The position numbers were made by a program, and so were the translations under genes. The notes under the pieces are model-generated. The model was given only the letters and a program-made list of their open reading frames with translations. It was not told the DNA's origin and ran no database searches. Below, in pieces: positions 2,902 through 32,848 of a stretch of DNA of 64,000 bases; the stretch's first letter is position 1; each line of letters begins with the position of its first letter. This DNA comes from Acidobacteriota bacterium (GTDB lineage Bacteria > Acidobacteriota > Vicinamibacteria > Vicinamibacterales > UBA2999): positions 66,533 to 130,532 of the forward strand of contig JAKFYH010000016.1 of assembly GCA_021730945.1 (NCBI GenBank). Direction: 5' to 3'.

Positions 2902-2923
2902 GCGCCCTATACTACCGTCGGGC

Positions 2924-3454
2924 ATGGGCGCGCGGTTCATTTTCGGTGTGGGGTTCTGGCTGGCCGTGCACGCCGGTGTGCTCGCGCAGGCACCAGCGCG
3001 GACGCCGGACATTCACTTCAATCCCACCCGCCACGCCATTGCCGACGCCATGCTGCAACTGGCCGCGGTCACCGCCGAAGACGTGGTCTTCGACCTGGGG
3101 TCGGGCGACGGTCGCATCCCGATCATTGCCGCCCAGAAATATGGCGCCCGTGGCGTGGGTGTGGAAATCGACCCGCGGCTGGTCAACCAGTCGTGGGGTA
3201 ATGCCAACGACGCCGAAGTCGCCAATCGCGTGAGCTTCCGGGTTGGCGATCTGTTCGAAACCGACCTCGCCGGCGCCACCGTCGTCACCATGTACCTGTC
3301 ACCCAGCATCATGAAGCGGCTGATGCCGAGGCTGAGAACCCTCCCACCGGGGACTCGAATCGTCTCGCACCAGTTCGACATGCCCGGCTGGCCACCCGAT
3401 GAACGGCGCAAGGTGGACGAGGCTGAGATCTTCTTGTGGAGAATTCCGAAATGA
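2924..3454 (+). CDS. Class I SAM-dependent methyltransferase (signal-like N-terminus)
   Basis: DLGSGDGR, GVEID, VVTMYL, RIVSHQF; TATACT at 2908-2913 upstream. Confidence 0.9.
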   Translation: MGARFIFGVGFWLAVHAGVLAQAPARTPDIHFNPTRHAIADAMLQLAAVTAEDVVFDLGSGDGRIPIIAAQKYGARGVGVEIDPRLVNQSWGNANDAEVANRVSFRVGDLFETDLAGATVVTMYLSPSIMKRLMPRLRTLPPGTRIVSHQFDMPGWPPDERRKVDEAEIFLWRIPK

Positions 3455-6398: not shown

Positions 6399-6442
6399 AC
6401 TGACCACCGTTGGTGGCCGGTTCGCTCAAGGCCGGTAACTGA

Positions 6443-18182: not shown

Positions 18183-18212
18183 TCGCCGACTCGTCTAGAC
18201 TGTACCCAGCAC

Positions 18213-19457
18213 ATGAGCAAACCTCGCCTTTTGATGGCCGGCACGGCCATCGTGATGATTGCTGCGGTCGTGTTTGCGACCCGCGGTTCCACCGAAGCCC
18301 CTGCAGCGGACGTCGTGGCGGTGACCCGCACTCCCATCTTGCAGTCGTTCGTGACCGCTTCGGGAGAAATTGTGGCCACGCGGTTTGCCGACATCGGGTC
18401 GGCGTCGATGGGCCGGCTCGTTTCGCTGAGTGTCCGGGAGGGAGACCGCGTCCGGGCCGGACAGACGCTTGCGCGCATCGACCCGGTGCAGGCGGCCAGT
18501 GCCGCCGACGCCGCGGCGGCCGGCCTGCGCGCACTCGAGGCTGATGTCCAGGGCGCCGCCAGCCAGGTTCGGGCCAGTCAGGCCGAACTGGCGGCGGCGA
18601 CGGCCCGGGCCAACGACGCGGACACATCGCTGCGCCGCGCGCGCGAGCTGCGTCAGGCCGGACTGATTGCGCCCTCCGACTTCGACACCGCCGAAGCCAC
18701 CGCCGAAGCGGCCCGCGCGCAGGAACGCGCCGCCGCCGCGGCCGTTCAGCGCCTGGAACAGGCGCAGGCATCGGCCGAGCGCCGGGTGGCGCAGGGGCGA
18801 GCCGAACTGGCACGCGCGCGTGACCAGGTATCCAAGACCGATATCACCGCGCCCATAGACGGAGTCGTCACGCGCCTCGATGTCGAAGAAGGTGAGATGG
18901 TCGTGATCGGCATTCAGAACCAGCCGGGCACCATCCTGATGACGATCTCCGACCTCAGTTCGATCAACGCCGAGGTCAAGGTTGCCGAGGCCGACGTGCT
19001 GCGCCTCTCGGTGGGCAATCCTGCCACCGCCACGCTCGAAGCCCTGCCCAGCGTCACTTTTACCGGCAATGTCGTCGAGATCGGCGCCAGCGCGCTGTCG
19101 ACGATCGGCCCGCAGGCCGCCGCGCGCGAGTTCAGGGTGAAGGTCCGGCTCGAAGGGGACCTGGCGCGGCTGCGCCCGGGACTGACCTGTGATGCCGAAA
19201 TCCTGATCGCATCGCGGAACAACGTCCTGACCGTGCCGCTCCAGTCGCTGGTCCAACGACCGTCGCCAGACGGCTCCCCGGCTACCGGGGTGTTCGTCGT
19301 GCGCGACGGGGTGGCCCGCTTTACGCCGGTCACGGCTGGCATCATCGGTGGGCTGACCGTCGAGGTCGAGGGCGTTGCCGAGGGGGCCTCGGTGATCGCG
19401 GGACCGTTCCAGGTGCTTCGTGAGCTCCAGGACGGCGCGCCGATCAAGGCGAAATAG
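18213..19457 (+). CDS. MacA-like periplasmic adaptor (MFP)
   Basis: N-terminal TM, long alpha hairpin, ITAPIDGVV, GEMVVIGIQN, LRPG; start reassigned to ATG 18213. Confidence 0.9.
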   Translation: MSKPRLLMAGTAIVMIAAVVFATRGSTEAPAADVVAVTRTPILQSFVTASGEIVATRFADIGSASMGRLVSLSVREGDRVRAGQTLARIDPVQAASAADAAAAGLRALEADVQGAASQVRASQAELAAATARANDADTSLRRARELRQAGLIAPSDFDTAEATAEAARAQERAAAAAVQRLEQAQASAERRVAQGRAELARARDQVSKTDITAPIDGVVTRLDVEEGEMVVIGIQNQPGTILMTISDLSSINAEVKVAEADVLRLSVGNPATATLEALPSVTFTGNVVEIGASALSTIGPQAAAREFRVKVRLEGDLARLRPGLTCDAEILIASRNNVLTVPLQSLVQRPSPDGSPATGVFVVRDGVARFTPVTAGIIGGLTVEVEGVAEGASVIAGPFQVLRELQDGAPIKAK

Positions 19458-19466
19458 GGCCGGCAT

Positions 19467-20054
19467 CTATCCGGCCGTGACGACGACCGCGCCGCACGCT
19501 CGACCGCCGCTGCGCCGATAGGCGTGCGGCTGGTTTGCGTCGAAGTAGATCGAGTCGCCGGTGGCCAGCACATGCTCCACGTCGTCGACGTGGACGCTCA
19601 ACTGGCCGGTCACGACGTAGATGAACTCGACGCCGGTGTGGACATGGGGCCGCAGGCGATCGGGCGTCACCGGGAGGAACTCGGCGTAGTACGAGCTGAA
19701 CCGCCGCTCGGTGGCCGGAAAATCCAGCGACTCAAAACGATAGGCCGGCGCGCGCGCGCCGGCTTGGTCTGGGAGCCGCACGCGATCGGACTTGCGGACG
19801 ATGGCGATCAGCGGCTTCTCGCGAGTGCCGGCAAAAAAGAAATCGAGACCGACGCTGAACACGAGCGCGATGCGCAACAGCGTCGGCAGGGTTGGAAACA
19901 GCCGGCCGCGCTCGATCTTCGACAACAGCGCGGCGGACAGGCCCGTGTGCTTGCCGAGCTCGACCAGGCCCATCGACCGCTTCAGTCGGAGCTTCCGAAT
20001 CTTCTCGCCAATCCCGTAATCGCCCAGGCCCGATTCGATCGTCGCCGACAGCAT
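19467..20054 (-). CDS. XRE-family HTH plus cupin transcriptional regulator
   Basis: LSKIERG...PTLPTL; HTGVEFIYV, GDSIYFDANQPH; AAGGAG RBS upstream of ATG 20054. Confidence 0.92.
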   Translation of the reverse strand: MLSATIESGLGDYGIGEKIRKLRLKRSMGLVELGKHTGLSAALLSKIERGRLFPTLPTLLRIALVFSVGLDFFFAGTREKPLIAIVRKSDRVRLPDQAGARAPAYRFESLDFPATERRFSSYYAEFLPVTPDRLRPHVHTGVEFIYVVTGQLSVHVDDVEHVLATGDSIYFDANQPHAYRRSGGRACGAVVVTAG

Positions 20055-20234
20055 TCCCAGCTCCTTTTTTCCTGACACGAACATTTCGCGCGCGTTCTGT
20101 CGTGTCGCTCACACGACTTTGGGCGTCGGAACGGATTTTACTGTTAATCAAGTCAGTTTGCACTACATTCAATTGATGGCATCGAATTCACGGCGCCATG
20201 CACAGTCACTGACCAGAGTTAAAGGGATCACATC

Positions 20235-20741
20235 ATGCGAAAACTACTCGCCATTGGAACCATCACCGCGCTCACACTGACGCTTACGACCGCCGTCGCC
20301 TCGGCGCAGCAGTCCGACATGAAGGGCGGCAAGGACATCGTCGCCACCGCCGTGGCGGCCGGCTCGTTCAAGACGCTCGCGGCGGCGCTGACGGCGGCCG
20401 GCCTCGTGCCGACGCTCCAGGGTGCGGGCCCGTTCACGGTGTTCGCGCCGACCGACGAGGCGTTTGCCAAGCTGCCCAAGGGCACGGTCGAGGACCTGCT
20501 CAAGCCCGAGAACAAGGCGAAGCTGACGCGCATCCTGACCTACCATGTGGTGTCGGGCAAGGTCATGGCGGCCGACGTGGTGAAGCTGAAGTCGGCCAAG
20601 GCCGTCAGCGGTGACATGATCACCATCAAGGTCGTGGACAAGACCGTGATGATCGACGGGGCGAAGGTGACCACGGCCGACATCGCCGCCAGCAACGGCG
20701 TCATTCACGTGATCGACAGCGTCATTCTGCCGAAGAACTAG
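20235..20741 (+). CDS. Fasciclin (FAS1) domain secreted protein
   Basis: Signal peptide; [31 protein letters not shown]. Confidence 0.95.
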
Positions 20742-20808
20742 GGCGACCGACGTGCAAGCAAGGTGCGGTTCGCCGGGCACGACCGGTGGGACCGCACCGG
20801 AGGCCCTG

Positions 20809-21309
20809 ATGATCACAGTGGTAGTCAACGATCGGATGCAGCGCGGTTATACCTACAGCCGCACCGAACCGATTGGCCGCAACTTCGATCCTTTGTTTAA
20901 GCCCGAGCTCACGCCGGCGCAGATGCTCCGGCTTGGCGTGTTTGGCGGCAAGTACATGACCGACTGCCGGGATGAGTTCCCGGCCCGCTGGTTCGCCGGA
21001 GCGAAGCTGTGCGCCCATCAGCACGACGCGCGCCTGAACTTCTTTGGCGTGAACGCATCACAGTCGCTCGCCACCTGGCGCCGCAATGGCTGGATCAACT
21101 CGCACGATCCGCGCGGCTGGTTCCAGTGGTACTGCCGGTACTACATGGGGCGGCGCGGCCGTGACGATGCCCGGCAGATCAAGCGCTGGCGCGCGATTGC
21201 CCGGCATGCCGCGGCGGTTCGCAAGAACTGCGAACCGGGCGACCTCGACTGCCGGCGGCGGCAGCGGCAAGCGCTGCTGCACTGGGCGTACGATAGTCGC
21301 AAGCTGTGA
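20809..21309 (+). CDS. Conserved hypothetical Trp/Arg-rich protein
   Basis: GGAGG RBS; PELTPAQML-GVFGGKY, DPRGWFQWYCRYYMGRR, RQIKRW, RQALLHWAYD. Confidence 0.8.
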   Translation: MITVVVNDRMQRGYTYSRTEPIGRNFDPLFKPELTPAQMLRLGVFGGKYMTDCRDEFPARWFAGAKLCAHQHDARLNFFGVNASQSLATWRRNGWINSHDPRGWFQWYCRYYMGRRGRDDARQIKRWRAIARHAAAVRKNCEPGDLDCRRRQRQALLHWAYDSRKL

Positions 21310-21319
21310 GGACATTCAG

Positions 21320-21733
21320 ATGCCAATGACCGTAATCGCCGGAACCTATGCGCTGATGACCGCGGTCTTCTTCGCCATCGACCTGGTGTGGCTTGGGATC
21401 GTTGCCCGGCCGTTCTATCAGACGCATCTCGGTCCCTTGCTGCGACCCGACGTACGGTGGGGACCGGCCATCTTGTTTTACCTGCTGTTCATTACCGGGA
21501 TCCTGGTGTTTGCCGTATTGCCGGCGGTCGAACGGGCATCGCTGTGGCGGGCCGTGGCGCTCGGGGCTTTCTTCGGCTTTGTGGCCTACGCCACTTACGA
21601 TCTGACCAGCCTCGCGCTGGTAAAAGGGTTCCCCGACATCGTCGCGGTCGTGGACATGGCGTGGGGTACGGTGCTAACGGCCACGGTCGCGGCTGCGGGC
21701 TACGCCGCCGCGCGGTGGCTCTCGGGGCACTGA
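21320..21733 (+). CDS. DUF2177-family membrane protein
   Basis: IDLVWLG, YATYDLT, DMAWG; 4 TM segments. Confidence 0.88.
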   Translation: MPMTVIAGTYALMTAVFFAIDLVWLGIVARPFYQTHLGPLLRPDVRWGPAILFYLLFITGILVFAVLPAVERASLWRAVALGAFFGFVAYATYDLTSLALVKGFPDIVAVVDMAWGTVLTATVAAAGYAAARWLSGH

Positions 21734-21770
21734 AGCGTCCGCGACTGCGCGTCGCGCGCATTTCCGCCGC

Positions 21771-22238
21771 TTACGTTTTTTGGAACGCCCGCAGCGTGAC
21801 GGCGTGGCGGTAGGCGAACAGACGCCTCAGCTTTCGTTGCATGATCGGCCCGCCAAGCAGCGCGCCGATTGATCCAAACGGCAGTTCATAGCGAATCGTG
21901 TCGTCCAGCACACACGCGTCCGGGCCTTCCGGAATCATCCGGTGCACGTGCGTCCAGGAGCGGAACGGGCCGGCGATCTGCTGATCGCTGAAGGAGCGGC
22001 CGTACTGGTAGTCGGCGTGCCGCAAGTCCCAGCGCACCGCAAACGGGCCGGGTCCGATGCGAAGCGACACCAGGGCGCCGTCGCGAATCCCGCCTTCGTG
22101 CCGGATCACGCGCACGCGCTCCCACGGGGGTGTCAGCTGCTCGAAGGCCCCTGGGGCCTCGTGCCAGTCGAACACCGCTTCGGCGGACGCGGGGATCACG
22201 CTGCGCGCAACGAAGGTGATACCGCGTGGTCCTGTCAT
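21771..22238 (-). CDS. SRPBCC family protein
   Basis: VFDWHE-PGAFEQLTPPW, DQQIAGPFRSWTHVH, FAYRH. Confidence 0.88.
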   Translation of the reverse strand: MTGPRGITFVARSVIPASAEAVFDWHEAPGAFEQLTPPWERVRVIRHEGGIRDGALVSLRIGPGPFAVRWDLRHADYQYGRSFSDQQIAGPFRSWTHVHRMIPEGPDACVLDDTIRYELPFGSIGALLGGPIMQRKLRRLFAYRHAVTLRAFQKT

Positions 22239-22239
22239 C

Positions 22240-22803
22240 TCATGGCACCGAGCGATAGCGCGGAACGCCGGCTTCCGGCGCCTCCAGGCGGACGACGAGG
22301 GCGAAGACCGCGAGGGCCACGGCCCAGCCGACCGAGAGCCGGACCAGCCCGAGTGCGAGCGGCGGCAGCAGCGTAACCGCGCCGAGGCCTTCGCCCGCGA
22401 GAAACGCGATTGGGCCTCCAATGGCCCCAAACAGTGCCGCGCGCATCGGTCGCGCCATCACCGGGCGCAAACTAAAGCGAAAGGTCGTCGCCAATTGTGC
22501 CCACATCGCCACCAGCCATAGCGGAGGAAACCAGGCGGCCACCGTGCCCGACGTGAAGCGATAGGTGCCAGACTCGAGCTGTACCATCTCGAGGACCACG
22601 CCGGCCAGAACAGCCAGGCCCATGAGGCGCGCCTCCAACCAACGTTCGTTGGTCAGCGCCAGGTGTACGCCGAACAGGGCGACGGCGACCACGACCCCCG
22701 TCCCGGGGCGATTCCAGGCACCGCCGAGCACGCAGGCGAACCATCCAACCTGATAGAGCGCGTAGTTGATCAGAAGAGTGTTTCGCACACGATCACTGGG
22801 CAC
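22240..22803 (-). CDS. DUF2878-family membrane protein
   Basis: NYALYQVGWFACVLG, PPLWLVAMW, GAIGGP. Confidence 0.85.
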   Translation of the reverse strand: MPSDRVRNTLLINYALYQVGWFACVLGGAWNRPGTGVVVAVALFGVHLALTNERWLEARLMGLAVLAGVVLEMVQLESGTYRFTSGTVAAWFPPLWLVAMWAQLATTFRFSLRPVMARPMRAALFGAIGGPIAFLAGEGLGAVTLLPPLALGLVRLSVGWAVALAVFALVVRLEAPEAGVPRYRSVP

Positions 22804-24262
22804 GCCGGGCGATCGCGCGCAGCATCCCCCTGAAAATCACCGCGTGAACGGGGAGCAAGGCATACCAGTACAGCAAGCCAAACAGCCCGACTGGTTCGAA
22901 CACCGCGGTCTGATGGACGGAGGCGCCGCCACCCGCCGCCGGTGCCACCTCGAACTCGAGCCACGCGCGTCCCGGCAACTTCATTTCCGCGGCCAGCCGC
23001 AATCGTCGACCCGGCTCGTACTTCTCAACCCGCCAGAAGTCGAGAGCGTCGCCAATGGCGGGGGTGTCCGGGTCGCGGCGTCCCCGGCGCATTCCGACGC
23101 CGCCCACCAGCAAGTCGATGGCGCCCCTGATCCGCCACAGCCAGGTGCCGAAGTACCAGCCCCGTTGGCCGCCGATTCTCGCAATCGGCGCAAAGGCGCG
23201 ATCGGCGTCGACACCTACATGCATCTGCCGGGCGTCGACCAGGCGGTTGCCGAACTTCGCTTCAAGGAAGGCGGTCGGCGCGCCGCCCGACGAGCGGGCA
23301 TCGGACCACCGCGTCTGGGCGAAGGCGCGGTTTTCATAGCGGATGGCGCGATCGATGGCTTCACTAAGGCCCACCGGCCTGATGGGGAACACCGAGAGCG
23401 CTGCAGGATCGGTGACCACCGACCGGTTCTTCAACCCGGCGATCAGTTCCCGTCCCACCCGGGCGTAGATCGGTGTCACCAGCCCAAGCCAGAGGCTCGA
23501 CAAGCGAGGAGTCAGCAGCGGAACGGAAATCATGGCGCGACCGAGCCCGCGCTGCCGCGCGTACTCGCGCATGAGGTCGCCGTAGCTGGCCTGATCGGCG
23601 CCGCCGATCTCGAACGTGCGGCTCCCGTGGTCCGGCAGATGGAGGCCGGCCACCAGGTAGGCGAGCAAGTCGTCGATCCCGATTGGCTGCGCCAGGGTGG
23701 ACACCCACGTCGGGCAGATCATGATGGGCAGGCGCTCCACCAGCGCGCGAATCAGCTCGAACGAGAGGCTGCCCGATCCGACCACGACCGAGGCCCGGAA
23801 TTCCACCACCGCCACCCCGCCCTCGCGCAGCGCCTCGCCGGTTTCGATGCGGCTCTTCAAGTGCTTGCTGAGCGCCCCTTCTTCTTCCGCGAGGCCGCCG
23901 AGGTAGATGATGCGCCCCACTCCCGCCTGTCGCGCGGCTTGCCCAAAGTTGCGGGCGGCAATACGGTCGGTCTCCAGGTAGTCGCCGTGCGCCCCCATGG
24001 AATGCACGAGGTAATAGGCCACGTCGATGCCGTCGAGCGCGCGATCGAGTGACTCGCGATCGAGGACGTCGCCCGCAACCACTTCGGTCGCTGGTGACAC
24101 CCGCGACACCAGCGCGGCCGGCCGCCGCGCGAGGCACCGGAGGCGAACCCCCGCGGCCTCGAGCACCGGGACCAGCCGTCCACCGATGTATCCGGTCGCG
24201 CCCGTGACCAGGACGGCCGGCCGCCCATCAGTCGAGGGCCCCTGGGGGACGAGGCTGGTCAC
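22793..24262 (-). CDS. Atypical SDR/NAD(P)-binding oxidoreductase with DUF2867 C-terminus (YbjT-like)
   Basis: VLVTGATGYIGG, YYLVHSM, GSGSLSFE, DFWRVE, AEMKLPG; GTGA overlap with the TonB gene stop. Confidence 0.9.
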   Translation of the reverse strand: MTSLVPQGPSTDGRPAVLVTGATGYIGGRLVPVLEAAGVRLRCLARRPAALVSRVSPATEVVAGDVLDRESLDRALDGIDVAYYLVHSMGAHGDYLETDRIAARNFGQAARQAGVGRIIYLGGLAEEEGALSKHLKSRIETGEALREGGVAVVEFRASVVVGSGSLSFELIRALVERLPIMICPTWVSTLAQPIGIDDLLAYLVAGLHLPDHGSRTFEIGGADQASYGDLMREYARQRGLGRAMISVPLLTPRLSSLWLGLVTPIYARVGRELIAGLKNRSVVTDPAALSVFPIRPVGLSEAIDRAIRYENRAFAQTRWSDARSSGGAPTAFLEAKFGNRLVDARQMHVGVDADRAFAPIARIGGQRGWYFGTWLWRIRGAIDLLVGGVGMRRGRRDPDTPAIGDALDFWRVEKYEPGRRLRLAAEMKLPGRAWLEFEVAPAAGGGASVHQTAVFEPVGLFGLLYWYALLPVHAVIFRGMLRAIARRAQ

Positions 24263-26646
24263 CGGAACCGCCAGTCGAAGCCGATGATCGGAAACAGCCC
24301 CTGCTGCTCGCCGAACTGCTCGGTGTTGGAGCGCCGGTTCCAGCGGTAGCCGGCGAAGTTGCGGCGGTTGGTGACGTTCTGAACGCCAAGGAAGAGGTTC
24401 AGCGGCTGCCCGCCCACGGTGAACGTGCGGTCGATGCGAAGGTCGATGCGGCCGTAATCGGGCGCGCGCTCGGCGTTGACGCGCGACAGATCGTAGACGC
24501 CACGACGCTGGGCCGTGGACACCGCGCTGTCGTAGGGTGTGAACGGCCGGCCCGAAAGAAACGACACCCGGGCGGACAGTTCCCATGCCGATGACAGTCG
24601 ATAGCCACCCAACAGGTTGAACACGATCGGATAGTCGAACGAGCCCGGCCTCAGAACGCCGTCGAGCCCCGCATGGCGGGTGCGCGAGAACGACAGGTTG
24701 CCCTGGCCGTAAAGCCCCGACCTGAGGCGCTGTTCCACAAAGAACTCTATGCCCTCGGCATGACCTGTACCGGCGCTGGTCAGAGGGAACAGAATCTCGC
24801 GGACGTCAAAGGTGTCTCCGATGTTGGCCAGTGACACGGTGGGGAGTCCACTCGCGACCGGGTAGTCATTGTAGTTCTTGCGGTACGCTTCGGCGGTCAC
24901 GCGCCGATCGGCACTCGGAGACCACGCCAGGCCCGTCACATAGTGGTCGGCACGCCACGGCTTGAGGGCCGCGTTCTGCGGGAACGCCGACACGAACAGG
25001 AACGCCGGCTGCTGGTAGTACGAGCCCGTGCTCGCGCTCCACGACAGGGAGTCGGTGAGGCGCACGGTGATCCCGGCGCGCGGACTGACGCGGGTCTTCG
25101 ACAAGGCGGCGTAGTGATCGACACGGCCGCCGAGGGTCACGCCGATTCGAGGGGCCACCTGCTTGGAGGCCTGCAGATAGGCGCCGGTCTGATACGATCG
25201 GAAGGTCGTGTCCAGCGAGAACGGGTCGACGCCTGGCTGTGGCGAGAACGGCGTGTCGTTGCCCAGGGGCGACCGCACCGCGTAGTCGATCCGAAACGTC
25301 TTGAAGCTGGCACCGGCCTGCACCGTATCGAAGTGCGGCACTCGTAAGGTGAGGTCGTACTTGATGGTGGTCTCGCCTTCGCGAGAATCCTCGAAGTAGA
25401 CGATGGGGCTGCGGGCAATGAGGTCGCCGGGCGCCACATCCGCAGCCGGGACGCCTTGCGCGACCAGGTCTTTCACCTGCTGCCCGACCTTTGCCTCCGA
25501 GTGCGTGACGCCAAGCAGGCCAACGCCGCGTGACCCGAAGAGGCGCTGCCAGTTGACACCCGTGGCGCTGCGCCAGCCGTTGTAGCGGATGTCGAAGTTC
25601 GCCAGTTCCTCTTCGAGGTCAGTGGCGTCGCCGAGACCGAGCCGAATTTCGTCGACACCTGCGATATTGACCACCCAGATGCGGTCTCGAGGTGTCAGGT
25701 CGTACACGGCCTTGGCATTGAGCGCATAGACGACCGGCACACCACCAAACCCCACGTCGTTGGTGAACAAGTCGAGGAAACTGCGGCGCGCCGACACCAC
25801 CCATGACCCCTTGCCCGCGTTGATGGGGCCTTCGAGAATGGCGCCCGCACCGGCGAAGCCGAGCGTGGCCCAACCGCCAAACTTTTCGCGACTGCCTTCG
25901 CGCTGGGTCACCTGCAACACGCTCGACGTCCGGTTGATGTAGGGCGCCGGGTATCCGCCGCTCAGGAACGTGACTTCCTGCAGGAGCTCGGCGTCGAGCA
26001 GGCTGACCGTGCCGCCGGCCGAGGCAAAGTTCGCGAAGGCGTTGATGTTCGGGATCTCGACGTTGTCGACGATGAACAGGTTCTCGAGGGGACTGCCGCC
26101 ACGGACAATGATGTCGTTGCGGAAATCGTCGGTGCCGATCACCACGCCCGGCAGGCCCTGGACGTAGCGCGACACGTCCTGCAGAGCGGCGGCGCTCTTG
26201 AGAATCTCGCGCGGCTCCACCAGGAAGCCCGAGTTCTTCACCTCCTGGGGCACCCGGAAGGCGGGTGCCGTCACGGTGACGGTTTGTTCGAACGTCTCGA
26301 TTGACGGCAGCTGCACCTGCACGGAGCCGTCCATGCCGGCCCGCACGTCAACCGGGTCGGTGGTGAACGGCAGGCCCTCGAGCGGCAGGATTTCCAGGCG
26401 ATAGGCGCCAGCCCGCAGGTCGCCAATGCGAAACGCGCCTTGCGCGCCGCTGGTGGCGCACGAAGGGGTGTCGAGCGCGCACACGCGCACGTTTTCGACC
26501 GGCTGCCCGGCCGCGTTCACTACCACGCCGCTGATCGCTCCGGCGCCGGTGGTGTCCTGCGCCGCCACCGGCGTGGCCGCCAACGCAGTGGCGGCTGCGA
26601 CGGCGAGAATCAGGCAGAGGCGAAGAAGCAAGTTCATTGGTGTCAT
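24259..26646 (-). CDS. TonB-dependent outer-membrane receptor
   Basis: Signal peptide, N-terminal extension, IIVRGGSPLEN plug, beta-barrel, C-terminal FDWRF; ATGA overlap with the MerR stop. Confidence 0.93.
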   Translation of the reverse strand: MTPMNLLLRLCLILAVAAATALAATPVAAQDTTGAGAISGVVVNAAGQPVENVRVCALDTPSCATSGAQGAFRIGDLRAGAYRLEILPLEGLPFTTDPVDVRAGMDGSVQVQLPSIETFEQTVTVTAPAFRVPQEVKNSGFLVEPREILKSAAALQDVSRYVQGLPGVVIGTDDFRNDIIVRGGSPLENLFIVDNVEIPNINAFANFASAGGTVSLLDAELLQEVTFLSGGYPAPYINRTSSVLQVTQREGSREKFGGWATLGFAGAGAILEGPINAGKGSWVVSARRSFLDLFTNDVGFGGVPVVYALNAKAVYDLTPRDRIWVVNIAGVDEIRLGLGDATDLEEELANFDIRYNGWRSATGVNWQRLFGSRGVGLLGVTHSEAKVGQQVKDLVAQGVPAADVAPGDLIARSPIVYFEDSREGETTIKYDLTLRVPHFDTVQAGASFKTFRIDYAVRSPLGNDTPFSPQPGVDPFSLDTTFRSYQTGAYLQASKQVAPRIGVTLGGRVDHYAALSKTRVSPRAGITVRLTDSLSWSASTGSYYQQPAFLFVSAFPQNAALKPWRADHYVTGLAWSPSADRRVTAEAYRKNYNDYPVASGLPTVSLANIGDTFDVREILFPLTSAGTGHAEGIEFFVEQRLRSGLYGQGNLSFSRTRHAGLDGVLRPGSFDYPIVFNLLGGYRLSSAWELSARVSFLSGRPFTPYDSAVSTAQRRGVYDLSRVNAERAPDYGRIDLRIDRTFTVGGQPLNLFLGVQNVTNRRNFAGYRWNRRSNTEQFGEQQGLFPIIGFDWRFR

Positions 26647-27566
26647 CCCATTCGTCCGCCGAGGCGGACCAGTTCCTTCTGGTAGGCAACATAATCGGCA
26701 AAGACCAGGCCGCGCGCGCCCAACGCGGCCGCGTGCCGCTCGGCGCCGCGGCCGCCGGCCCATACCTCGATGTCCGCCGGGAGTCCGCGCGCCAGGGCGC
26801 GCAGTTCGCGTTCGATCGACTTGCCCTCTGGCGCCGTCGTCAACCCGAGCACGACCACCCGCGCGCCGGTGGCCTTGGCCGCGGCCACGATCTCGCCGGC
26901 CGGCAGGTCCGGGCCGAGATAGGCGACGCCCAGGCCGCTGCTGGCCGCCAGCATCGCCGCGCCCAGGATGCCAATCTCGTGGCGGTCGCCAGCGGGCGTG
27001 GCAAACATCAGCCGGGTCGTTCCCTCCCCGCGCGAGTGCAAGCGGAGAAATGAGCCGAGGACGTGCCGGATCGATGACGACAGTAAATGTTCGTGCGCCA
27101 CTCCGGCGCGTCGGCGGTGCCAGTCCTCGCCCACCCGGACGAGCGCCGGCATCAGCAGGTTCTGGAGGAGATCGAGGGGACTAAGCAGCGAGGCCAGGCG
27201 CGCGACCTCCTGGTCGATTGCCGCCGCGTCGTATCGGCGCACCGCGGCGTCCAGTACGGTCGCATCCGCCGCTGTCGCCGGTGCCGGGGGCGGGGCGGAC
27301 GCGGCCGGCGCCGCCAGCGGGCGCAACTGCCGGTCGCTCAGTCCGGCCAGGCGGCCGATGCTGTGCCCCTGCTCGACCGCATCGCGCAACAGCCGCAGCC
27401 TCGCCACGTCCGCGTCCGTGTACATGCGTCCGCGGTCGTCGCGCGCCGGCGTGACGACGCCGTGGCGGCGTTCCCATGCCCGCAGCGTGTCGATGGCGAT
27501 GCCGGTCTGTTTCGAGACGGCACGGATCGGATAGCGCGCGGCGGCGTCGCGAGCGGTCTTTACCAT
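26643..27566 (-). CDS. CarH/LitR-like MerR regulator with cobalamin-binding domain
   Basis: TLRAWERRH HTH; W-x9-EH (WHRRRAGVAHEH); DRHEIG, YLGPDLP, WAGG. Confidence 0.9.
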   Translation of the reverse strand: MVKTARDAAARYPIRAVSKQTGIAIDTLRAWERRHGVVTPARDDRGRMYTDADVARLRLLRDAVEQGHSIGRLAGLSDRQLRPLAAPAASAPPPAPATAADATVLDAAVRRYDAAAIDQEVARLASLLSPLDLLQNLLMPALVRVGEDWHRRRAGVAHEHLLSSSIRHVLGSFLRLHSRGEGTTRLMFATPAGDRHEIGILGAAMLAASSGLGVAYLGPDLPAGEIVAAAKATGARVVVLGLTTAPEGKSIERELRALARGLPADIEVWAGGRGAERHAAALGARGLVFADYVAYQKELVRLGGRMG

Positions 27567-27594
27567 CCCGGATCCTCGATTCTCATGTTCTCCA

Positions 27595-27674
27595 AGGGTA
27601 GTGGGTGCTGTTCCTGGTGTCAAGTGTTTGTCATGGACAAATCATTGACACATTGGGCGGGGTACTGCTACTTT
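27595..27674. promoter_or_regulatory. Divergent sigma70-type promoters overlapped by a CarH-type operator
   Basis: GTGTCAA-GTG-TTTGTC-ATG-GACAAA-TCA-TTGACAC (27617-27651). Plus strand: TTGACA 27645 and TG-C-TACTTT 27666-74. Minus strand: TTGACA 27623-18, 17 bp, TACCCT 27600-595. Confidence 0.8.
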
Positions 27675-27683
27675 CGATCCGAG

Positions 27684-28934
27684 ATGAGGACAGTTGCGGT
27701 CATTGGCGCGGGGATCTCCGGTCTGGCGGCCGCCTATTTGTTGAGCCGCCGGCACCGGGTCGACCTGTTCGAGCAGGACGGGCGTCTTGGCGGCCACACC
27801 AACACAGTGCTGGTGCCCGGCCCGGACGGGTCAGTGCCGCTCGATACCGGTTTCCTGGTGCACAACGACCGCACCTATCCCAACCTGGTGCGGCTGTTCG
27901 CCGAGCTCGGCGTGACGACGCGGGACTCGGACATGTCGTTTGCGGTGTCCGATCGCCAGAGTGGCCTTGAGTACAGCAGCCGCGGCGCCAACGGGTTCTT
28001 CGCCCAGCGGCGCAACCTGGTGAACCCGGCGCATCTGCTTCTGCTCAGGGAGATCGTTCGCTTCAATCGCGAGGCGCTGGTGCTGCTCGACCAGCCGGAC
28101 GCCGAGCGGCACACGCTGGGAGACTTTCTCGAGCTGCGGCGCTTCGGCCAATCGTTCACGCGCCGCTACCTGTATCCCATGGCGTCGGCCATCTGGTCGT
28201 CGTCGCTCGATGCGGTCAGCGCGTTTCCCGCGGTGACCCTGGCGCGGTTCTTCCACAACCACGGCCTGCTGTCGCTCACGGCGCAGCCCACCTGGAAGGT
28301 AGTCGAGGGCGGCAGCCACACCTACATCCCCAAACTGGCCGCCCCGTTCGCCGATCGCATCCACACGGGCGCGAATATCCAGCACGTGCGCCGCGGGGAG
28401 CACCAAGTGACGCTGACCTTCCGCGACCGCCCCTCGCAGGACTTTGACGACGTCGTGTTCGCCTGCCACGGCGATCAGGTCCTGCCGCTGCTCGCCGACC
28501 CGAGCGATGACGAGCGCGCGATCTTCTCGCACTTCACCACCACGACCAACGTCGCCTGTCTCCATTCCGACGCCTCCGTGCTCCCGCGCCTGCCAGGCGC
28601 GCGCGCCTCCTGGAACTACTTGCTGGCTGCCGACGGCGGGGCGCCGCCGGTTGTGACCTACGACCTGAATCGACTGCAGGGGCTTTCGGGCGCCGAGCAG
28701 TACTGCGTCACCCTCAACCCGGACGGCACCGTCGACGAGCGGCTCGTGCTGGGCCGCTTTGTTTATCGTCACCCGCTGTTCACGCGCGCGGCGCTCGCGG
28801 CGCAACAGCAATGGAGCGTGGTCAGCGGCCGCCCGCGCACGCACTACTGCGGCGCCTACTGGTTCTACGGGTTTCACGAGGACGGGTTGAACTCCGCCAT
28901 TCGAGTGGCGGCCGCACTGGGAGTCGAGTGGTGA
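27684..28934 (+). CDS. FAD-dependent oxidoreductase, UfaD-like fatty-acyl desaturase
   Basis: GAGISG, RLGGHTNT, DTGFLVHNDRTYP, ASWNY, YGFHEDG. Confidence 0.9.
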   Translation: MRTVAVIGAGISGLAAAYLLSRRHRVDLFEQDGRLGGHTNTVLVPGPDGSVPLDTGFLVHNDRTYPNLVRLFAELGVTTRDSDMSFAVSDRQSGLEYSSRGANGFFAQRRNLVNPAHLLLLREIVRFNREALVLLDQPDAERHTLGDFLELRRFGQSFTRRYLYPMASAIWSSSLDAVSAFPAVTLARFFHNHGLLSLTAQPTWKVVEGGSHTYIPKLAAPFADRIHTGANIQHVRRGEHQVTLTFRDRPSQDFDDVVFACHGDQVLPLLADPSDDERAIFSHFTTTTNVACLHSDASVLPRLPGARASWNYLLAADGGAPPVVTYDLNRLQGLSGAEQYCVTLNPDGTVDERLVLGRFVYRHPLFTRAALAAQQQWSVVSGRPRTHYCGAYWFYGFHEDGLNSAIRVAAALGVEW

Positions 28935-29737
28935 TCTCCTCCGGGTTGTTCGTCGGCACGCTGCGGCATCGCCGGTTCTCGCCGGTCCGGCACGCGTTCA
29001 CCTATCCGATCTTCATGGCGCTGCTGGACATCGATCGGCTGCCACAGTTGATGCAGGTGTCGCGGCTCACGAGCTACGACCGGTGGAACTGGGCCAGCTT
29101 TCACAACCCCGACCACCTGGGCGACCCGTCGCGCCCCCTGAGGGAACGGCTGGCAGCCGACGCCGCCAGTCACGGCGTCGACCTGCCGAACGGCCCGATC
29201 TTTCTGCTGACCCACCTGCGCTATCTCGGCTACGGGTTCAATCCCGTGTCGTTCTTCTATTGCCTCGACGCCGCCGGCGACGTGCGGATCGTGATGGCCG
29301 AGGTCAGCAACACCTTCGGCGGCACCCATAACTACTGGCTGCGGCCCGACCCGTCAGCGCGCACGTTCCGGTCGGCCGCCGCCAAGTCCTTGTACGTGTC
29401 CCCGTTTCTTCCCGTCGACCTCGACTACAACTTCGCACTCTCGGCGCCGGACGATCGGCTGGTGGCGCACATGGATGCGCGCCGAGACGGCGCCGTATGC
29501 CTCGACGCGACCCTGTCGCTTGAACGGCGGCCGTGGAGCGCCCGTGAGATTCGCCGCGCGCTCATCCGGCACCCGGCGATGACGGCCGGCGTTGTGGCGG
29601 GGATTCATTGGCAGGCGTTAAGACTCTGGTGGAAGGGCGTTCCCCTCGTCGCGCGCGCCACTCGCCACGGCGTCGGGGAACGCGCGGCGCAAGGCCGCCG
29701 CGACCAACCATTGGGCGAATCACTAAAGGAGTTCTGA
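28928..29737 (+). CDS. DUF1365 protein, UfaO-like
   Basis: HRRF-P-HAFTY, FNPVSFFYC, AEVSNTFG, YVSPF, IHWQALRLWWKG. Confidence 0.9.
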   Translation: MVISSGLFVGTLRHRRFSPVRHAFTYPIFMALLDIDRLPQLMQVSRLTSYDRWNWASFHNPDHLGDPSRPLRERLAADAASHGVDLPNGPIFLLTHLRYLGYGFNPVSFFYCLDAAGDVRIVMAEVSNTFGGTHNYWLRPDPSARTFRSAAAKSLYVSPFLPVDLDYNFALSAPDDRLVAHMDARRDGAVCLDATLSLERRPWSAREIRRALIRHPAMTAGVVAGIHWQALRLWWKGVPLVARATRHGVGERAAQGRRDQPLGESLKEF

Positions 29738-29739
29738 GC

Positions 29740-30996
29740 GTGTTGACGAAGTGGGCAAGAACGGCGTTTCTCTCCGGCCTCGACAATGTCAAGGGCGGAG
29801 CCCTCACCATCAACTGCGCGGATCGCACCTACCGGTTTGGCCAGGCCGGCGAGCTGGATGCGCGGCTGTGCATCCACGACGACCGCTTCTTCCTGCGGGC
29901 GCTCACCGGTGGGCAGATCGGCCTGGGCGAGTCCTTCATGGATGGAGACTGGACGACCCCGGACCTGGTGCCGCTGGCACGGCTGATGCTCCGCAGCCGG
30001 CAGGCCCTGGACGCGCAGACCCGCGTGATGGGTGCGCTGCACCAGATCGGAGGCGCGATTTCGCGACGCCTGCGTGACAACTCCATCGCCGGCAGCCGCC
30101 GCCACATCCATCGCCATTACGACCTGGGCAACGACTTCTTCCGGCTCTTCCTCGACACCGAGTTGCTCATGTACTCCTGCGCCGCCTTCGAGACGGCCAG
30201 CGATTCGCTGGAGCAGGCGCAAGCCCAAAAGGTCGACCGCATCTGCCGGACACTGCAGCTCGGCCCGTCCGACCACGTTCTTGAAATTGGCAGCGGCTGG
30301 GGCGGATTCGCGTCGTGGGCCGCCACCCGCTACGGCTGCCGGGTCACCACGACGACCATCAGCGACGAGCAGTACCGGCACGTGCGCGGCGTGCGGTCGC
30401 AGCTGGGTGAGGCCGGGTCGCGCATCGAGGTGTTGCATGCCGACTACCGCGAACTGACCGGCCGCTACGACAAGGTTGTCAGCATCGAGATGTTCGAGGC
30501 CGTTGGCCTCAACCACTACGACGACTATTTTTCGGCGGTCGACCGCCTGCTGGCCACGGGCGGCGCCATGTTCCTGCAAACCATCACCGTCGATGACCAA
30601 TGGTTCCCGCACTACCACGGCACACCGGACTGGATCGAGAAGTACATCTTCCCGGGCGGCGAACTGGCGTCGGTCGGCGAGATCATGAAGTCGCTCACGC
30701 GCACCACGTCGCTGTCGGTCTATCACGCGCAGAACCTGGGCACGCACTACGCGCGCACGCTGCGAGCCTGGCGCGAACGATTCCATCGCAACCTCGACCA
30801 CGTCGTCGCCCTCGGGTTCGACGACCGGTTCATTCGCATGTGGGACCTGTACCTCGGTTCCTGCGAAGCGGCCTTCCTGGAGCGCCACACCGGGCTGTTC
30901 CAGTTGATGCTGGTGAAGAACGGCTCACAGCAGGTGTGGTTCAACGAGCCTTGGGCTGAAGACCGCGCGGTCTCCCGGCAGGAGTCAGCGGCGTGA
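29740..30996 (+). CDS. cfa: Cyclopropane-fatty-acyl-phospholipid synthase family methyltransferase (UfaM/CfaB-like)
   Basis: HYDLGNDFF, VLEIGSGWG, SIEMFEAVG, YIFPGG, HYARTL. Confidence 0.93.
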   Translation: MLTKWARTAFLSGLDNVKGGALTINCADRTYRFGQAGELDARLCIHDDRFFLRALTGGQIGLGESFMDGDWTTPDLVPLARLMLRSRQALDAQTRVMGALHQIGGAISRRLRDNSIAGSRRHIHRHYDLGNDFFRLFLDTELLMYSCAAFETASDSLEQAQAQKVDRICRTLQLGPSDHVLEIGSGWGGFASWAATRYGCRVTTTTISDEQYRHVRGVRSQLGEAGSRIEVLHADYRELTGRYDKVVSIEMFEAVGLNHYDDYFSAVDRLLATGGAMFLQTITVDDQWFPHYHGTPDWIEKYIFPGGELASVGEIMKSLTRTTSLSVYHAQNLGTHYARTLRAWRERFHRNLDHVVALGFDDRFIRMWDLYLGSCEAAFLERHTGLFQLMLVKNGSQQVWFNEPWAEDRAVSRQESAA

Positions 30997-32024
30997 CCGG
31001 CGCCTCCCCGGCCCGAGCAGAGGCGCACCATCATCCCGCTGGCACCGCGCCCGACCGCTGGGACGTGATCCGGGCCATCGAACCGGTGGTAGGAGACAAC
31101 CTCGACCTGCTTGTGCCGATCGAGCGGGCATGGCAGCCCACCGACTACCTGCCCGATCTGGAAGCCGATGGGTGGCGCGATGAGGTGGAGCGTTTTCGCC
31201 GGTCTGCCGAGGCGATCTCAGACGACCTGCTCGTGGTCCTGGTGGGCGACATGGTCACCGAAGAGGCGCTGCCCAGTTACTCGGTGGCGCTCAATGGCCT
31301 GGTGCGCGACACCGAGGGCACGAGCCCGGCACCATGGGCCCGCTGGCTGCGCGGGTGGGTCGCCGAAGAGAACCGGCATGGTGACCTGTTGAATGCTTAC
31401 CTCCGCCTGACCGGACGCGTCGACATGCGCGCGGTCGAGCGCTCGATTCACCACCTGATCGCCAACGGCTTCAATTCCGGGAGCCAGGCTGACCCCTACA
31501 ACCTGATCGTCTACACCTCGTTCCAGGAGCGCGCCACGCGCATCTCGCACGCCAATGTGGGCAAGCGGGCCGGCCGGGAGGGCGACCCCCAACTGGCCCG
31601 CATCTGCGGGATGATCGCCAGTGATGAAGCGCGTCACGAGACCTTCTACACCCGCATGATGGGCGAGGTGCTCGAGCGCGATCCGGCCGGTGGCATCCTG
31701 GCGTTCAGGTCGATGCTGCGGGGCCTGATCGCGATGCCGGGCCGCCACATGCACGACGGCCGCGATCCGGATCTGTTCGATCACTTCGCCGTCGTGGCCC
31801 AGCGGATCGGCGTCTATACGGCGCGCGACTACGCCTCCATTATCGAGCACCTCGTCCGAGCCTGGAACATCGCCGGCCGGTCGGTGAGCGGCGCGGCCGC
31901 CCGCGCCCAGGACGAACTGTGTCAGCAGGCCGACCGATACATGAGGCTGGCGGAGCGAACTTCCGCGGCGCTTGCCAGGCAGCCTCCAGTTGCGTTCAGC
32001 TGGCTGCGGGATCGCAAGGCCTGA
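30993..32024 (+). CDS. Soluble di-iron acyl-ACP desaturase
   Basis: WQPTDYLP, TEEALPSY, WVAEENRHG, FQERATRISH, DEARHE; GTGA overlap. Confidence 0.92.
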   Translation: MTGASPARAEAHHHPAGTAPDRWDVIRAIEPVVGDNLDLLVPIERAWQPTDYLPDLEADGWRDEVERFRRSAEAISDDLLVVLVGDMVTEEALPSYSVALNGLVRDTEGTSPAPWARWLRGWVAEENRHGDLLNAYLRLTGRVDMRAVERSIHHLIANGFNSGSQADPYNLIVYTSFQERATRISHANVGKRAGREGDPQLARICGMIASDEARHETFYTRMMGEVLERDPAGGILAFRSMLRGLIAMPGRHMHDGRDPDLFDHFAVVAQRIGVYTARDYASIIEHLVRAWNIAGRSVSGAAARAQDELCQQADRYMRLAERTSAALARQPPVAFSWLRDRKA

Positions 32025-32056
32025 CGAGTGCGGGAAGTGCGCGGTAAAGTGTAGCC

Positions 32057-32785
32057 GTGTCACAGATGCCGGATGCCGTCCGGGCCGAGCTGGCGCCACA
32101 GGGCCGGCTGCGTGCCGCCCTGAACGACGCCAACACGCTGCTGATTTCCACGCGCGGATCCGATCCCACGGGCGTGGCCCCCGACCTGGCGCGCGAACTG
32201 GCCGCGCGGGCCGGCGCGACCGTCGAGTTCATCGGATACGCCAATGCCGGACTGGTCGCCGACGCGGCCACCACCGGCGCCTGGGACGTGGCCTTCATCG
32301 GCGCCGAACCGCAGCGCGCCGGCGAGGTCGCCTTTTCGCCGGCGTATGTCGAGATCGACGCCACCTTTCTGGTGGCGTCCGATTCCCCCTTCACGCGGAT
32401 CGACGAGGTCGATCGCGACGGAGTTCACATTGCGACGGCGGCGCGGGCGGCCTACACGCTCTACCTGCAACGCACGCTGCGCCACGCGGCCCTGGTCGAG
32501 GCGGAGGGGCTGCCCGGCGCGTTCGAGCGATTTGTCGGGATGAAGCTGGATGCGTTGGCAGGACTGAAGCCCAACCTGATCGCGGACGCCCGCAAGCTGG
32601 CGGGGGCGCGGATCCTCGCCGGCCGCTTTACCGCGGTGCAGCAGGCCATCGGCACGCCCAAGCCACGAGCGGCGGCGGCGGCCTACCTGGCCTCGTTCGC
32701 CTCTGAGATCGTGGTGTCGGGATTGCTGGCACGCGTGATTGCGCGCCACCAGGTGGAAGGGCTGTCGATCGTGCCGGCGCGCTAG
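32057..32785 (+). CDS. Orphan substrate-binding-domain protein (type 2 PBP fold)
   Basis: LAPQGRLRAALN, GVAPDLARELA, WDVAF; no signal peptide. Confidence 0.8.
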   Translation: MSQMPDAVRAELAPQGRLRAALNDANTLLISTRGSDPTGVAPDLARELAARAGATVEFIGYANAGLVADAATTGAWDVAFIGAEPQRAGEVAFSPAYVEIDATFLVASDSPFTRIDEVDRDGVHIATAARAAYTLYLQRTLRHAALVEAEGLPGAFERFVGMKLDALAGLKPNLIADARKLAGARILAGRFTAVQQAIGTPKPRAAAAAYLASFASEIVVSGLLARVIARHQVEGLSIVPAR

Positions 32786-32848
32786 TGGGATTCCGGCGAG
32801 GCCGGGCGAGGACGCCGCAAAACGCGAGCGCCCCCGCCCATCCCTCAC

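Follow-up and report, generated by a model that had tools for sequence, protein, structure and literature searches.

A CarH-type regulator shares a conserved predicted operator with a furan-lipid-type operon in an Acidobacteriota genome

We describe a locus within a 64,000-nucleotide stretch of DNA from an Acidobacteriota bacterium (assembly GCA_021730945.1, contig JAKFYH010000016.1, positions 66,533 to 130,532; hereafter the window), in which a gene for a CarH-type regulator (carH) lies divergent from an operon encoding a UfaD-like oxidoreductase, a UfaO-like DUF1365 protein, a CMAS-family methyltransferase and a soluble acyl-carrier-protein (acyl-ACP) desaturase, DesA. The comparisons below support a conserved predicted operator shared by carH and this operon. 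With moderate confidence we read the locus as a light-gated lipid-modification regulon, in which CarH loaded with adenosyl-B12 (AdoB12) would repress in the dark and light would induce furan-lipid synthesis together with accessory proteins. Photoprotection of this type is already known; what appears to be new is a predicted full B12 photoreceptor wired to a probable furan-lipid operon. To our knowledge, CarH-type AdoB12 photoreceptors are tied almost entirely to carotenoid genes, and furan fatty acid genes are controlled either by sigmaE-ChrR or by a B12-free LitR with a light-oxygen-voltage (LOV) partner. Acidobacteriota are a soil and water phylum whose members are hard to culture, and their light biology is, as far as we know, almost unstudied.

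A CarH-type regulator with a complete light-response signature

The MerR_1 domain of the 307-aa regulator (PF13411, 56.1 bits) covers residues 31-95 of the long open reading frame (ORF), and CarH (NF052513, 114.7 bits) is its best NCBIfam model by a wide margin. It could be aligned over 277 residues to CarH of Thermus thermophilus (TtCarH; 3WHP/5C8D; E 3e-26), where the recognition helix LRAWERRHG corresponds to LRQWERRYG of TtCarH, the W-x9-EH motif and the adjacent His are intact (GEDWHRRRAGVAHEH opposite GEAWHRGEIGVAEEH), and the lower-ligand His is retained in DRHEIG, as is the GG motif. All three CarH signatures reported by a first-pass annotation made from the sequence alone (RxWERR, W-x9-EH and DxHxxG) are therefore present and aligned to TtCarH. 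The definition of W-x9-EH follows PMC8156234. Within the B12-binding motif ExHx2G-x41-SxV/T-x22-27-GG, DRHEIG and GG are correctly spaced and the Ser is replaced by Gly (GLT). Furthermore, the published light-response signature GxxW, EH, GxxH and GxxxP (PMC11796333) is complete, in the form of GEDW, EH, GDRH and GPDLP. The genome encodes no second CarH-type protein; its remaining B12-binding_2 match falls in a 1262-aa frame of methionine-synthase size. On these grounds carH is predicted to encode an AdoB12-dependent photoreceptor repressor.

The genome also looks able to obtain and adenosylate B12, judging from two cobalamin riboswitch loci and a PduO-type cobalamin adenosyltransferase. Both loci lie on contig C1. 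In one (24477-27062), the riboswitch stands before the genes for a BtuB-like TonB receptor, which matches TonB-B12 (TIGR01779, 172 bits) best among the NCBIfam models, and for a PepSY_TM protein; in the other (178659-182307), it precedes ABC_tran/FecCD and two Peripla_BP_2 genes, a btuCDF-like set. The organism therefore probably imports B12. On contig C13 (15473-17787) the adenosyltransferase gene adjoins two tandem SQS_PSY genes of the squalene/phytoene synthase family.

A single palindrome underlies two predicted divergent promoters

The gap between carH and ufaD is 117 bp long and contains a 33-bp palindrome at 27618-27650, TGTCAA-GTGT-TTGTC-ATG-GACAA-ATCA-TTGACA, with the pattern TGTCAA-N4-TTGTC-ATG-GACAA-N4-TTGACA. 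Within it lie four ACA/TGT elements spaced 11 bp, a pair per strand, and each outer arm is a perfect TTGACA that forms the -35 hexamer of one of the two divergent promoters. The consensus of the CarH repeat is nAnnTnnACAn, and characterised operators consist of three or four tandem repeats (PMC8156234); all four 11-bp units of the palindrome retain T5 and ACA8-10. The predicted ufaD promoter comprises -35 TTGACA (27645-27650), an 18-nt spacer and -10 TACTTT (27669-27674), and the ufaD ATG follows 9 nt past the -10, so that the ufaD mRNA would be nearly leaderless. The predicted carH promoter comprises -35 TTGACA (complement of 27618-27623), a 17-nt spacer and -10 TACCCT (complement of 27595-27600). 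The ufaD promoter geometry is repeated in six related loci (L013, L015, L018, L020, L026 and L027).

In this genome of 4.73 Mb (100% complete) the full palindrome occurs once, with 0 mismatches here and 6 at the next sites, and its core 13-mer has one exact occurrence. A matrix built from the window site and 7 related loci, which match it by construction, scored 51.9 bits at the operator and 18.9 at the second-best genome site. When 7 orthologous intergenic regions were aligned, 25 columns proved invariant, and 21 of these fell inside the operator. Sites scoring ≥20 bits were present in 10 CarH-centred loci outside the matrix set, in 6 of 15 receptor-centred loci and in 1 of 39 ufa-centred loci; an operator-like site lies directly before ufaD in locus L094. 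Two CarH subclades, with 46-48% identity between them, share this operator geometry.

Since there is no second operator in the genome and no photolyase (PF00875, PF04244), the CarH regulon of this genome appears to consist of this locus alone, and the earlier description of it as self-contained and free of photolyase genes agrees with these genome-wide results. Carotenoid and photolyase genes were considered as further CarH targets in the genome and rejected. No photolyase was detected by PF00875 or PF04244, PF03441 not having been searched separately, and the tandem SQS_PSY genes had no operator among the top 25 genome-wide scores, CrtI not having been searched separately.

The operon has the families and gene order of a furan-fatty-acid triad

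In Rhodobacter sphaeroides, UfaD (RSP1091), described as an NAD-FAD-binding, phytoene-dehydrogenase-like protein, and the DUF1365 protein UfaO (RSP1090) act on what UfaM produces to give the furan acid 9M5-FuFA, and in Rhodopseudomonas palustris RPA2571-2570-2569 (ufaD-ufaO-ufaM) is both required and enough for 9M5-FuFA (PMC7380195). The products characteristic of the UfaD-UfaO-UfaM pathway are 11Me-12t-18:1, 11Me-10t,12t-18:2 and 9M5-FuFA. The FAD oxidoreductase, DUF1365 and CMAS genes of the window belong to the same three families and stand in the same order as the R. palustris genes. DUF1365 occurs in one copy in the genome, as does a strong CMAS gene; if the pathway runs, the window methyltransferase must therefore be its UfaM. 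The CMAS-family enzyme is predicted to methylate a cis-monounsaturated phospholipid acyl chain, the UfaD-like protein to desaturate the methylated chain and the UfaO-like protein to form the furan ring in an O2-dependent reaction.

The CMAS-family enzyme is 37% identical to Cfa, the cyclopropane fatty acid synthase of Escherichia coli, and retains C139, E239 and Y317, with Gln at the position of H266. Given that the bicarbonate ligands C139, E239, H266, I268 and Y317 are described as strictly conserved in cyclopropane synthase (PMC3132707), the canonical Cfa ligand set is incomplete here. The enzyme also stays below every NCBIfam Cfa equivalog cut-off (297.9 against 400, 281 against 600 and 217 against 650). 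Among the fetched loci, Gln occupies this position in 48 of 49 triad-type CMAS homologues adjoining DUF1365, and His is kept in 26 of 28 second, shorter CMAS genes near triad loci. As cotton cyclopropane synthases likewise carry Gln there (PMC3132707), Q266 marks a subfamily and not a product.

The translation of desA contains two (D/E)ExxH di-iron motifs, EENRH and DEARH, and the enzyme is predicted to supply the monounsaturated precursor. A soluble DesA closes the operon in 6 loci (the window, L013, L026, L027, L069 and L071), and a membrane FA_desaturase (PF00487) precedes ufaD in 12 others (L018, L020, L031, L061, L087, L090, L101, L105, L108, L112, L116 and L119) and stands beside it in L103. 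The recurrence of two unrelated desaturase types in ufa operons argues that precursor supply belongs to the module, in line with the earlier claim that the operon carries its own desaturase.

Gene content and coupling

The window has about 66% G+C, for which reason six-frame ORF lists are crowded; real genes were settled by domain searches (Pfam, NCBIfam) and third-position G+C, which was 0.78-0.92 across all called frames. Four DNA sequencing runs from a single study contain the stretch and may be its origin, and no RNA run containing it was listed. The genes and predicted regulatory elements are listed in Table 1.

Table 1. Genes and predicted regulatory elements of the locus, in window coordinates
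Feature	Position	Strand	Basis
XRE-type helix-turn-helix (HTH) + cupin regulator	19467..20084	-	Pfam HTH_3/HTH_31 + Cupin_2
Fasciclin-domain protein, signal-like N-terminus, gene 1 of three-gene operon	20235..20741	+	PF02469, 139.6 bits
166-aa protein, unnamed family, gene 2 of fasciclin operon	20809..21309	+	no Pfam match
DUF2177 membrane protein, gene 3 of fasciclin operon	21320..21733	+	PF09945, 147.3 bits
SRPBCC / START-like (Polyketide_cyc) protein, last gene of carH operon	21771..22238	-	PF03364, 37.9 bits
DUF2878 membrane protein	22240..22803	-	PF11086, 118 bits
NAD(P)-binding (NmrA/epimerase-like) + DUF2867 fusion oxidoreductase	22793..24262	-	PF13460, PF01370, PF05368, PF11066 (125 bits)
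TonB-dependent outer-membrane receptor (CarboxypepD_reg + Plug + barrel)	24259..26646	-	Pfam
carH, MerR_1 + B12-binding_2 (four-helix bundle) + B12-binding (Rossmann)	26643..27566	-	Pfam
Predicted carH promoter	27595..27623	-	read from sequence
Predicted CarH operator, 33-bp palindrome	27618..27650	.	sequence, uniqueness, conservation
Predicted ufaD promoter	27645..27674	+	read from sequence
UfaD-like FAD/NAD-binding oxidoreductase (Amino_oxidase/NAD_binding_8)	27684..28934	+	PF01593, PF13450
UfaO-like DUF1365 protein	28928..29737	+	PF07103, 259.9 bits
CMAS-family S-adenosylmethionine (SAM) methyltransferase, UfaM position	29740..30996	+	PF02353, 287.6 bits
Soluble di-iron acyl-ACP desaturase (DesA)	30993..32024	+	PF03405 FA_desaturase_2, 422.3 bits over 317 residues

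Both large operons are tightly coupled, their successive genes either overlapping (ATGA or GTGA) or standing 1-2 nt apart. In the carH operon, the start of the TonB receptor gene and the carH stop share an ATGA, the start of the DUF2867 fusion and the receptor stop share a GTGA, the DUF2878 start overlaps the preceding stop, and the SRPBCC ATG lies 1 nt past the DUF2878 stop. On the other strand the ufaD stop overlaps the DUF1365 start, and the desA start and the methyltransferase stop share a GTGA. The fasciclin operon (+), in which DUF2177 starts 10 nt past the gene for the 166-aa protein, converges on the SRPBCC end of the carH operon (-). The first-pass annotation had placed all of these genes correctly, the frame of DUF2177 included, and its two central arrangements were also borne out, namely a MerR protein divergent from a coupled operon of FAD oxidoreductase, DUF1365, CFA-family and desaturase genes, and a CarH protein heading its own operon of receptor, oxidoreductase, DUF2878 and SRPBCC. 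What it had called a short-chain dehydrogenase/reductase (SDR) does have an NAD(P)-binding part; it is not a classical SDR, being instead an NmrA/epimerase-like domain fused to DUF2867.

An SBP_bac_3-like gene of 242 aa (32057-32785, +) begins 32 nt past desA with no terminator seen between them, and its position is not conserved in relatives; co-transcription is possible, yet the gene is probably not part of the module. An HlyD-type gene at 17907-19457 lies a few kb from the locus and is unlinked to CarH.

The TonB receptor and its companions in the carH operon

The TonB receptor is a recurrent member of the CarH regulon in the order, according to the positions of its orthologues. Of 120 other genomes in the order, 20 have such an orthologue (E≤1e-80); 15 of their loci were fetched, of which 5 had CarH and the operator directly upstream, 1 the operator alone and 9 neither. 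The receptor stands behind CarH in genomes G008 and G010 as well, and the link to CarH or the operator spans six families of the order. The first-pass annotation had ascribed an outer-membrane transporter to the module. The neighbours of the 9 unlinked orthologues were varied and had no common theme.

B12 import was dropped as the leading idea for this receptor. It had no match to TIGR01779 or NF007926 at E≤0.01, and the genome has the separate riboswitch-linked BtuB-like receptor, to which it is 25% identical over 181 residues. No Rfam family was detected anywhere in the window, so no cobalamin riboswitch precedes the receptor gene, and the receptor had no relative among PDB sequences.

The SRPBCC protein probably binds a lipid or another hydrophobic ligand. 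DUF2878 follows the triad in several acidobacterial loci, and in Aeromonas salmonicida an operon of SDR, FAD oxidoreductase, DUF1365, cfa and DUF2878 genes changed expression with riboflavin (PMC10012899). The locus had been thought to carry unusual extra parts; judging from neighbourhoods and from PMC10012899 and PMC4067076, however, the SDR-type protein, DUF2878, SRPBCC, fasciclin and DUF2177 are usual companions of the triad or of singlet-oxygen regulons.

Distribution in Acidobacteriota

The host had been taken for a probable acidobacterium, which fits a CarH 67% identical to that of the window in an Acidobacteriota relative. Full-length CarH-like proteins (E≤1e-25) were present in 11 of 41 related genomes, the genome of the window included, and in 6 of 24 within the genus. 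In a phylum sample of 301 Acidobacteriota genomes, CarH-like proteins (E≤1e-15) were found in 54 and DUF1365 in 51; both occurred in 27, against about 9 expected by chance, a signal overstated by the kinship of the genomes. Comparison of the two tables placed CarH within 10 kb of DUF1365 on the same contig in 10 of the 51 DUF1365 genomes. Of 39 further DUF1365 loci in the phylum sample, 33 have the triad as an unbroken block, 2 are cut by contig ends and 4 are variants.

The gene set recurs together in acidobacterial relatives, and the layout is complete in G366 and G404 of the same order. Among 51 CarH-centred loci, a full ufaD-DUF1365-CMAS triad lay near CarH in 10, a triad cut by a contig end in 1 and a deletion remnant of it in 1 (G008). 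SRPBCC was near CarH in 14 of these loci, fasciclin in 13, DUF2177 in 10 and the NAD(P)/DUF2867 protein in 9. Pfam searches of 148 flanking ORFs from 33 CarH loci lacking a full triad returned photolyases, epimerase+DUF1731 proteins, DUF1295, DUF4397 and MacB/HlyD efflux genes, and no carotenoid genes within 3 kb of CarH.

Several relatives had arrangements of their own. At 3225-3559 of the G008 locus (L015), the opening 64 codons of ufaD run straight into the final 56 codons of desA; it looks as if a deletion of about 3.5 kb removed the ufa operon and left the operator and the carH-receptor-oxidoreductase operon in place. The carH operon of G010 (L013, 498-5016) runs on beyond the oxidoreductase and adds genes for a SpoIIE-type phosphatase, DUF2878, a ferritin/Dps-like protein, DoxX and a DPRP protein related to photolyases, forming a larger light regulon than that of the window. 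In a second CarH subclade (L019, L021, L030 and L056), the genes after CarH encode SRPBCC, HlyD and two MacB/FtsX proteins, which look like a light-controlled efflux pump. B12-binding regulators of other architectures also adjoin ufa or photolyase genes: B12-binding_2 + B12-binding with a C-terminal HTH_3 (L043, G045, 14285-15178, -), HTH_17 + B12 domains directly upstream of ufaD (L085, G043, 2544-3377), and a 254-aa B12-domain ORF between a DUF2867 oxidoreductase and ufaD, again directly upstream of the latter (L117, G191, 5880-6644).

The fasciclin operon and the 166-aa protein

The best operator score before the fasciclin operon of the window genome was 1.6 bits and that before its DUF1295 gene was -2.0 bits, with no CarH operator at either; both were rejected as CarH targets, and light control of the fasciclin-unknown-DUF2177 operon in this genome is not supported. 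In relatives a DUF2177 gene heads the carH operon, and the carH operon of the window is without that copy. Because the DUF2177 of the window is only 33-43% identical to those genes, it is a paralogue and not a displaced carH-operon gene. An XRE-HTH + cupin gene is divergent from the fasciclin gene both in the window and in L070 (G382, 14630-15217). This pairing hints at a small regulatory unit of its own, and the XRE-cupin protein is a candidate local regulator of the fasciclin operon whose membership in the module is uncertain.

The 166-aa protein carries the motifs DPRGWFxWYCRYYxGRR and RQRQALLHWAYD. It had no match in Pfam or PHROG, and a profile search against PDB sequences gave one chance-level match only (E 0.13). 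Its family is nevertheless very widespread, consisting of 167-aa 'hypothetical proteins' that are about 80% identical: at E≤0.001 there were at least 8000 clusters at the 90% level, with 76-93% identity among the 120 matches listed, and 2453 representatives of 50% clusters. In G025 (L016) a homologue shares a CarH operator with DUF2177-carH. In Chlamydomonas, the SAK1-dependent singlet-oxygen regulon co-induces CFA1, CFA2, DUF1365, DUF2177, DUF1295 and a fasciclin-like protein (PMC4067076, Table 5), and DUF2177 and DUF1295 are marker families of heliorhodopsin neighbourhoods as well (preprint 10.1101/2021.02.16.431466).

Discussion

In the regulon that we propose, AdoB12-loaded CarH, probably as a tetramer, would occupy the palindrome in the dark, covering the -35 hexamers of two divergent sigma-70-type promoters and repressing both carH-TonB receptor-NAD(P)/DUF2867 oxidoreductase-DUF2878-SRPBCC and ufaD-ufaO-ufaM-like-desA. 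Ultraviolet (UV), blue or green light would cleave the Co-C bond, upon which CarH would disassemble and leave the DNA, and both operons would be transcribed. DesA would then provide monounsaturated acyl chains, which the CMAS-family enzyme would methylate on phospholipids; UfaD would introduce a second double bond, and UfaO would add an oxygen atom from O2 and close the furan ring. Light would in this way lead to furan fatty acids, or at the least to fatty acids that are methylated and desaturated. The furan products would scavenge singlet oxygen and radicals in the membrane, and the co-induced envelope and lipid-binding proteins may support the response.

Several observations weigh against this proposal. 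The NF052513 score of the regulator is well short of the equivalog cut-off (114.7 against 400 bits), and the Ser of SxV/T is Gly in it and in most relatives (Gly in 12 of 19 aligned relatives, Ser or an Ala-type residue in 6 of 19, by hand count). The operator consists of two inverted repeat pairs and not of a tandem array, and position 2 of the repeat consensus is lost; since characterised CarH operators are tandem repeats, the binding mode is extrapolated. Both -10 hexamers match at 3 of 6 positions only, and a consensus promoter scan reported neither the carH nor the ufaD promoter. Orthology to UfaM, UfaD and UfaO is argued from protein family, gene order and copy number. In R. sphaeroides the CMAS gene behind ufaO (RSP1089) is dispensable for furan fatty acids, UfaM being encoded elsewhere (PMC7380195), so that position alone cannot identify UfaM. 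Finally, G008 has no ufa genes and retains the operator and the carH operon, and the two halves can therefore exist apart.

The product of the operon is where an alternative carries an appreciable, if clearly minor, probability. Under the same regulation, the enzymes might make a methyl-branched, conjugated-diene, cyclopropane or other oxygenated chain that alters membrane properties or serves as a signal. The resemblance of the CMAS enzyme to E. coli Cfa, with C139, E239 and Y317 retained, would suit such a product, as would the example of RSP1089 and the plant cyclopropane synthases that share its Gln at H266 (PMC3132707). Fatty-acid substrates in Acidobacteriota may also differ from cis-vaccenate. 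The furan product is nonetheless favoured by the placement of the enzyme in the DUF1365-linked subfamily (Q266 in 48 of 49, against His in 26 of 28 second CMAS genes) and below all the NCBIfam Cfa cut-offs. UfaD and UfaO homologues, moreover, have no other known role, and the triad suffices in R. palustris (PMC7380195).

Regulation leaves less room for alternatives. It seems improbable that the MerR/B12 protein is not a photoreceptor, acting independently of B12 like CarA of Myxococcus, which binds the same operator type without needing B12 (PMC8156234), or sensing B12 supply for the receptor with the lipid genes carried along. The missed CarH cut-off, the receptor gene directly after the regulator and the altered EH pair of two relatives (GH in L013, ER in L027) are what this would draw upon. 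W-x9-EH, however, is said to be absent from CarA and definitive of CarH homologues (PMC8156234) and is intact here; the receptor does not resemble BtuB, and the genome has a separate BtuB-like gene under riboswitch control; and the phylum-wide neighbours of CarH, namely photolyases, ufa genes, fasciclin and SRPBCC, indicate a light or singlet-oxygen set and not B12 metabolism. We consider it very improbable that the divergence is incidental, with CarH regulating only its own operon and the ufa operon under other control, for example by an extracytoplasmic function (ECF) sigma factor as in Rhodobacter. In the phylum sample, 41 of 51 DUF1365 loci do lack CarH within 10 kb, other regulators adjoin some ufa loci (such as an ECF sigma factor in L087), and Cupin_7 (ChrR-type) matches exist in this genome, albeit weak and on other contigs only (best 31.8 bits). 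On the other hand, the 117-bp gap offers no good -35 box except the right arm of the palindrome, which lies 33 bp ahead of the ufaD ATG, so that occupancy of the operator must affect ufaD, and the same geometry recurs in two CarH subclades of 46-48% mutual identity. No ECF sigma factor or ChrR anti-sigma was found among the genes called at 17900-35400, sigma factors not having been searched genome-wide.

Beyond the light-gated lipid regulon itself, we would entertain, as a speculation that is unlikely to hold, that CarH in this acidobacterial order gates outer-membrane transport as well as lipid chemistry, the receptor being a light-induced importer, and that the 166-aa family is a core member of an ancient singlet-oxygen lipid defence shared with algae. 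Light destroys the CarH chromophore irreversibly. A possible cargo would be a corrinoid that replaces the photolysed chromophore, or another compound that is photoprotective or photosensitising. A conserved receptor in a light regulon bears on how cells replace this chromophore.

The locus and its relatives join a predicted B12 photoreceptor with a probable furan-lipid operon in Acidobacteriota. They offer a compact four-gene cassette of desaturase and triad, and a short palindromic operator for two promoters at once, unlike the tandem-repeat operators solved so far. The family set of CMAS, DUF1365, DUF2177, DUF1295, fasciclin and SRPBCC travels together from Acidobacteriota to green algae. 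Among the matches listed in searches of open-access papers, subscription papers and supplements lying outside the scope, none described ufa genes under the control of a full B12-type CarH, and none described CarH from Acidobacteria.

Comparison with known systems

The closest counterparts of the regulator are CarH and class I LitR of Thermus thermophilus, Myxococcus xanthus and Bacillus megaterium, with which it shares the MerR DNA-binding and B12-binding domains, W-x9-EH, the His lower ligand, and 11-bp operator units (T5 and ACA8-10 kept, A2 not) over a -35 box, the promoter of the regulator itself included. The targets differ, being carotenoid genes there and lipid-modification and envelope genes here, as do the operators, with three or four tandem repeats there and two inverted pairs serving two divergent promoters here. 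The host phylum here is Acidobacteriota, and the similarity is modest (114.7 bits against 400).

In Pseudomonas, class II LitR (PplR/PmlR) is without the Rossmann B12 domain and acts by way of a short LOV protein, and ufaM is induced 25-33 fold by light (PMC9758184). Both that cluster and the one described here set a LitR/CarH-family regulator beside an SDR-type protein, an FAD oxidoreductase, ufaM or an ufaM-like gene and unknown proteins; the first-pass annotation had noted that LitR/CarH homologues regulate similar genes in some Proteobacteria. The Pseudomonas system includes a photolyase and uses the site T(G/A)TACA/TGTACA (PMC9758184), whereas here the full B12 signature is present and the genome has no photolyase by the two models searched.

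The ufa genes of R. sphaeroides (RSP1091-1087 and UfaM) and R. palustris (RPA2571-2569), compared by family and order, belong to the same three families, the order here being that of R. palustris, and serve a function linked to singlet oxygen (PMC7380195). Control in Rhodobacter is by sigmaE-ChrR and not by a photoreceptor, and the operons as described contain no desaturase (PMC7380195); the genes called around the present locus include neither partner of that pair. The A. salmonicida operon likewise has an SDR-type protein and DUF2878 as regular partners of the triad, and no light regulator is described for it (PMC10012899). The SAK1 regulon of Chlamydomonas brings together families that in Acidobacteriota are likewise grouped around CarH; it is eukaryotic and nuclear, uses another signalling route, and its genes are unclustered (PMC4067076).

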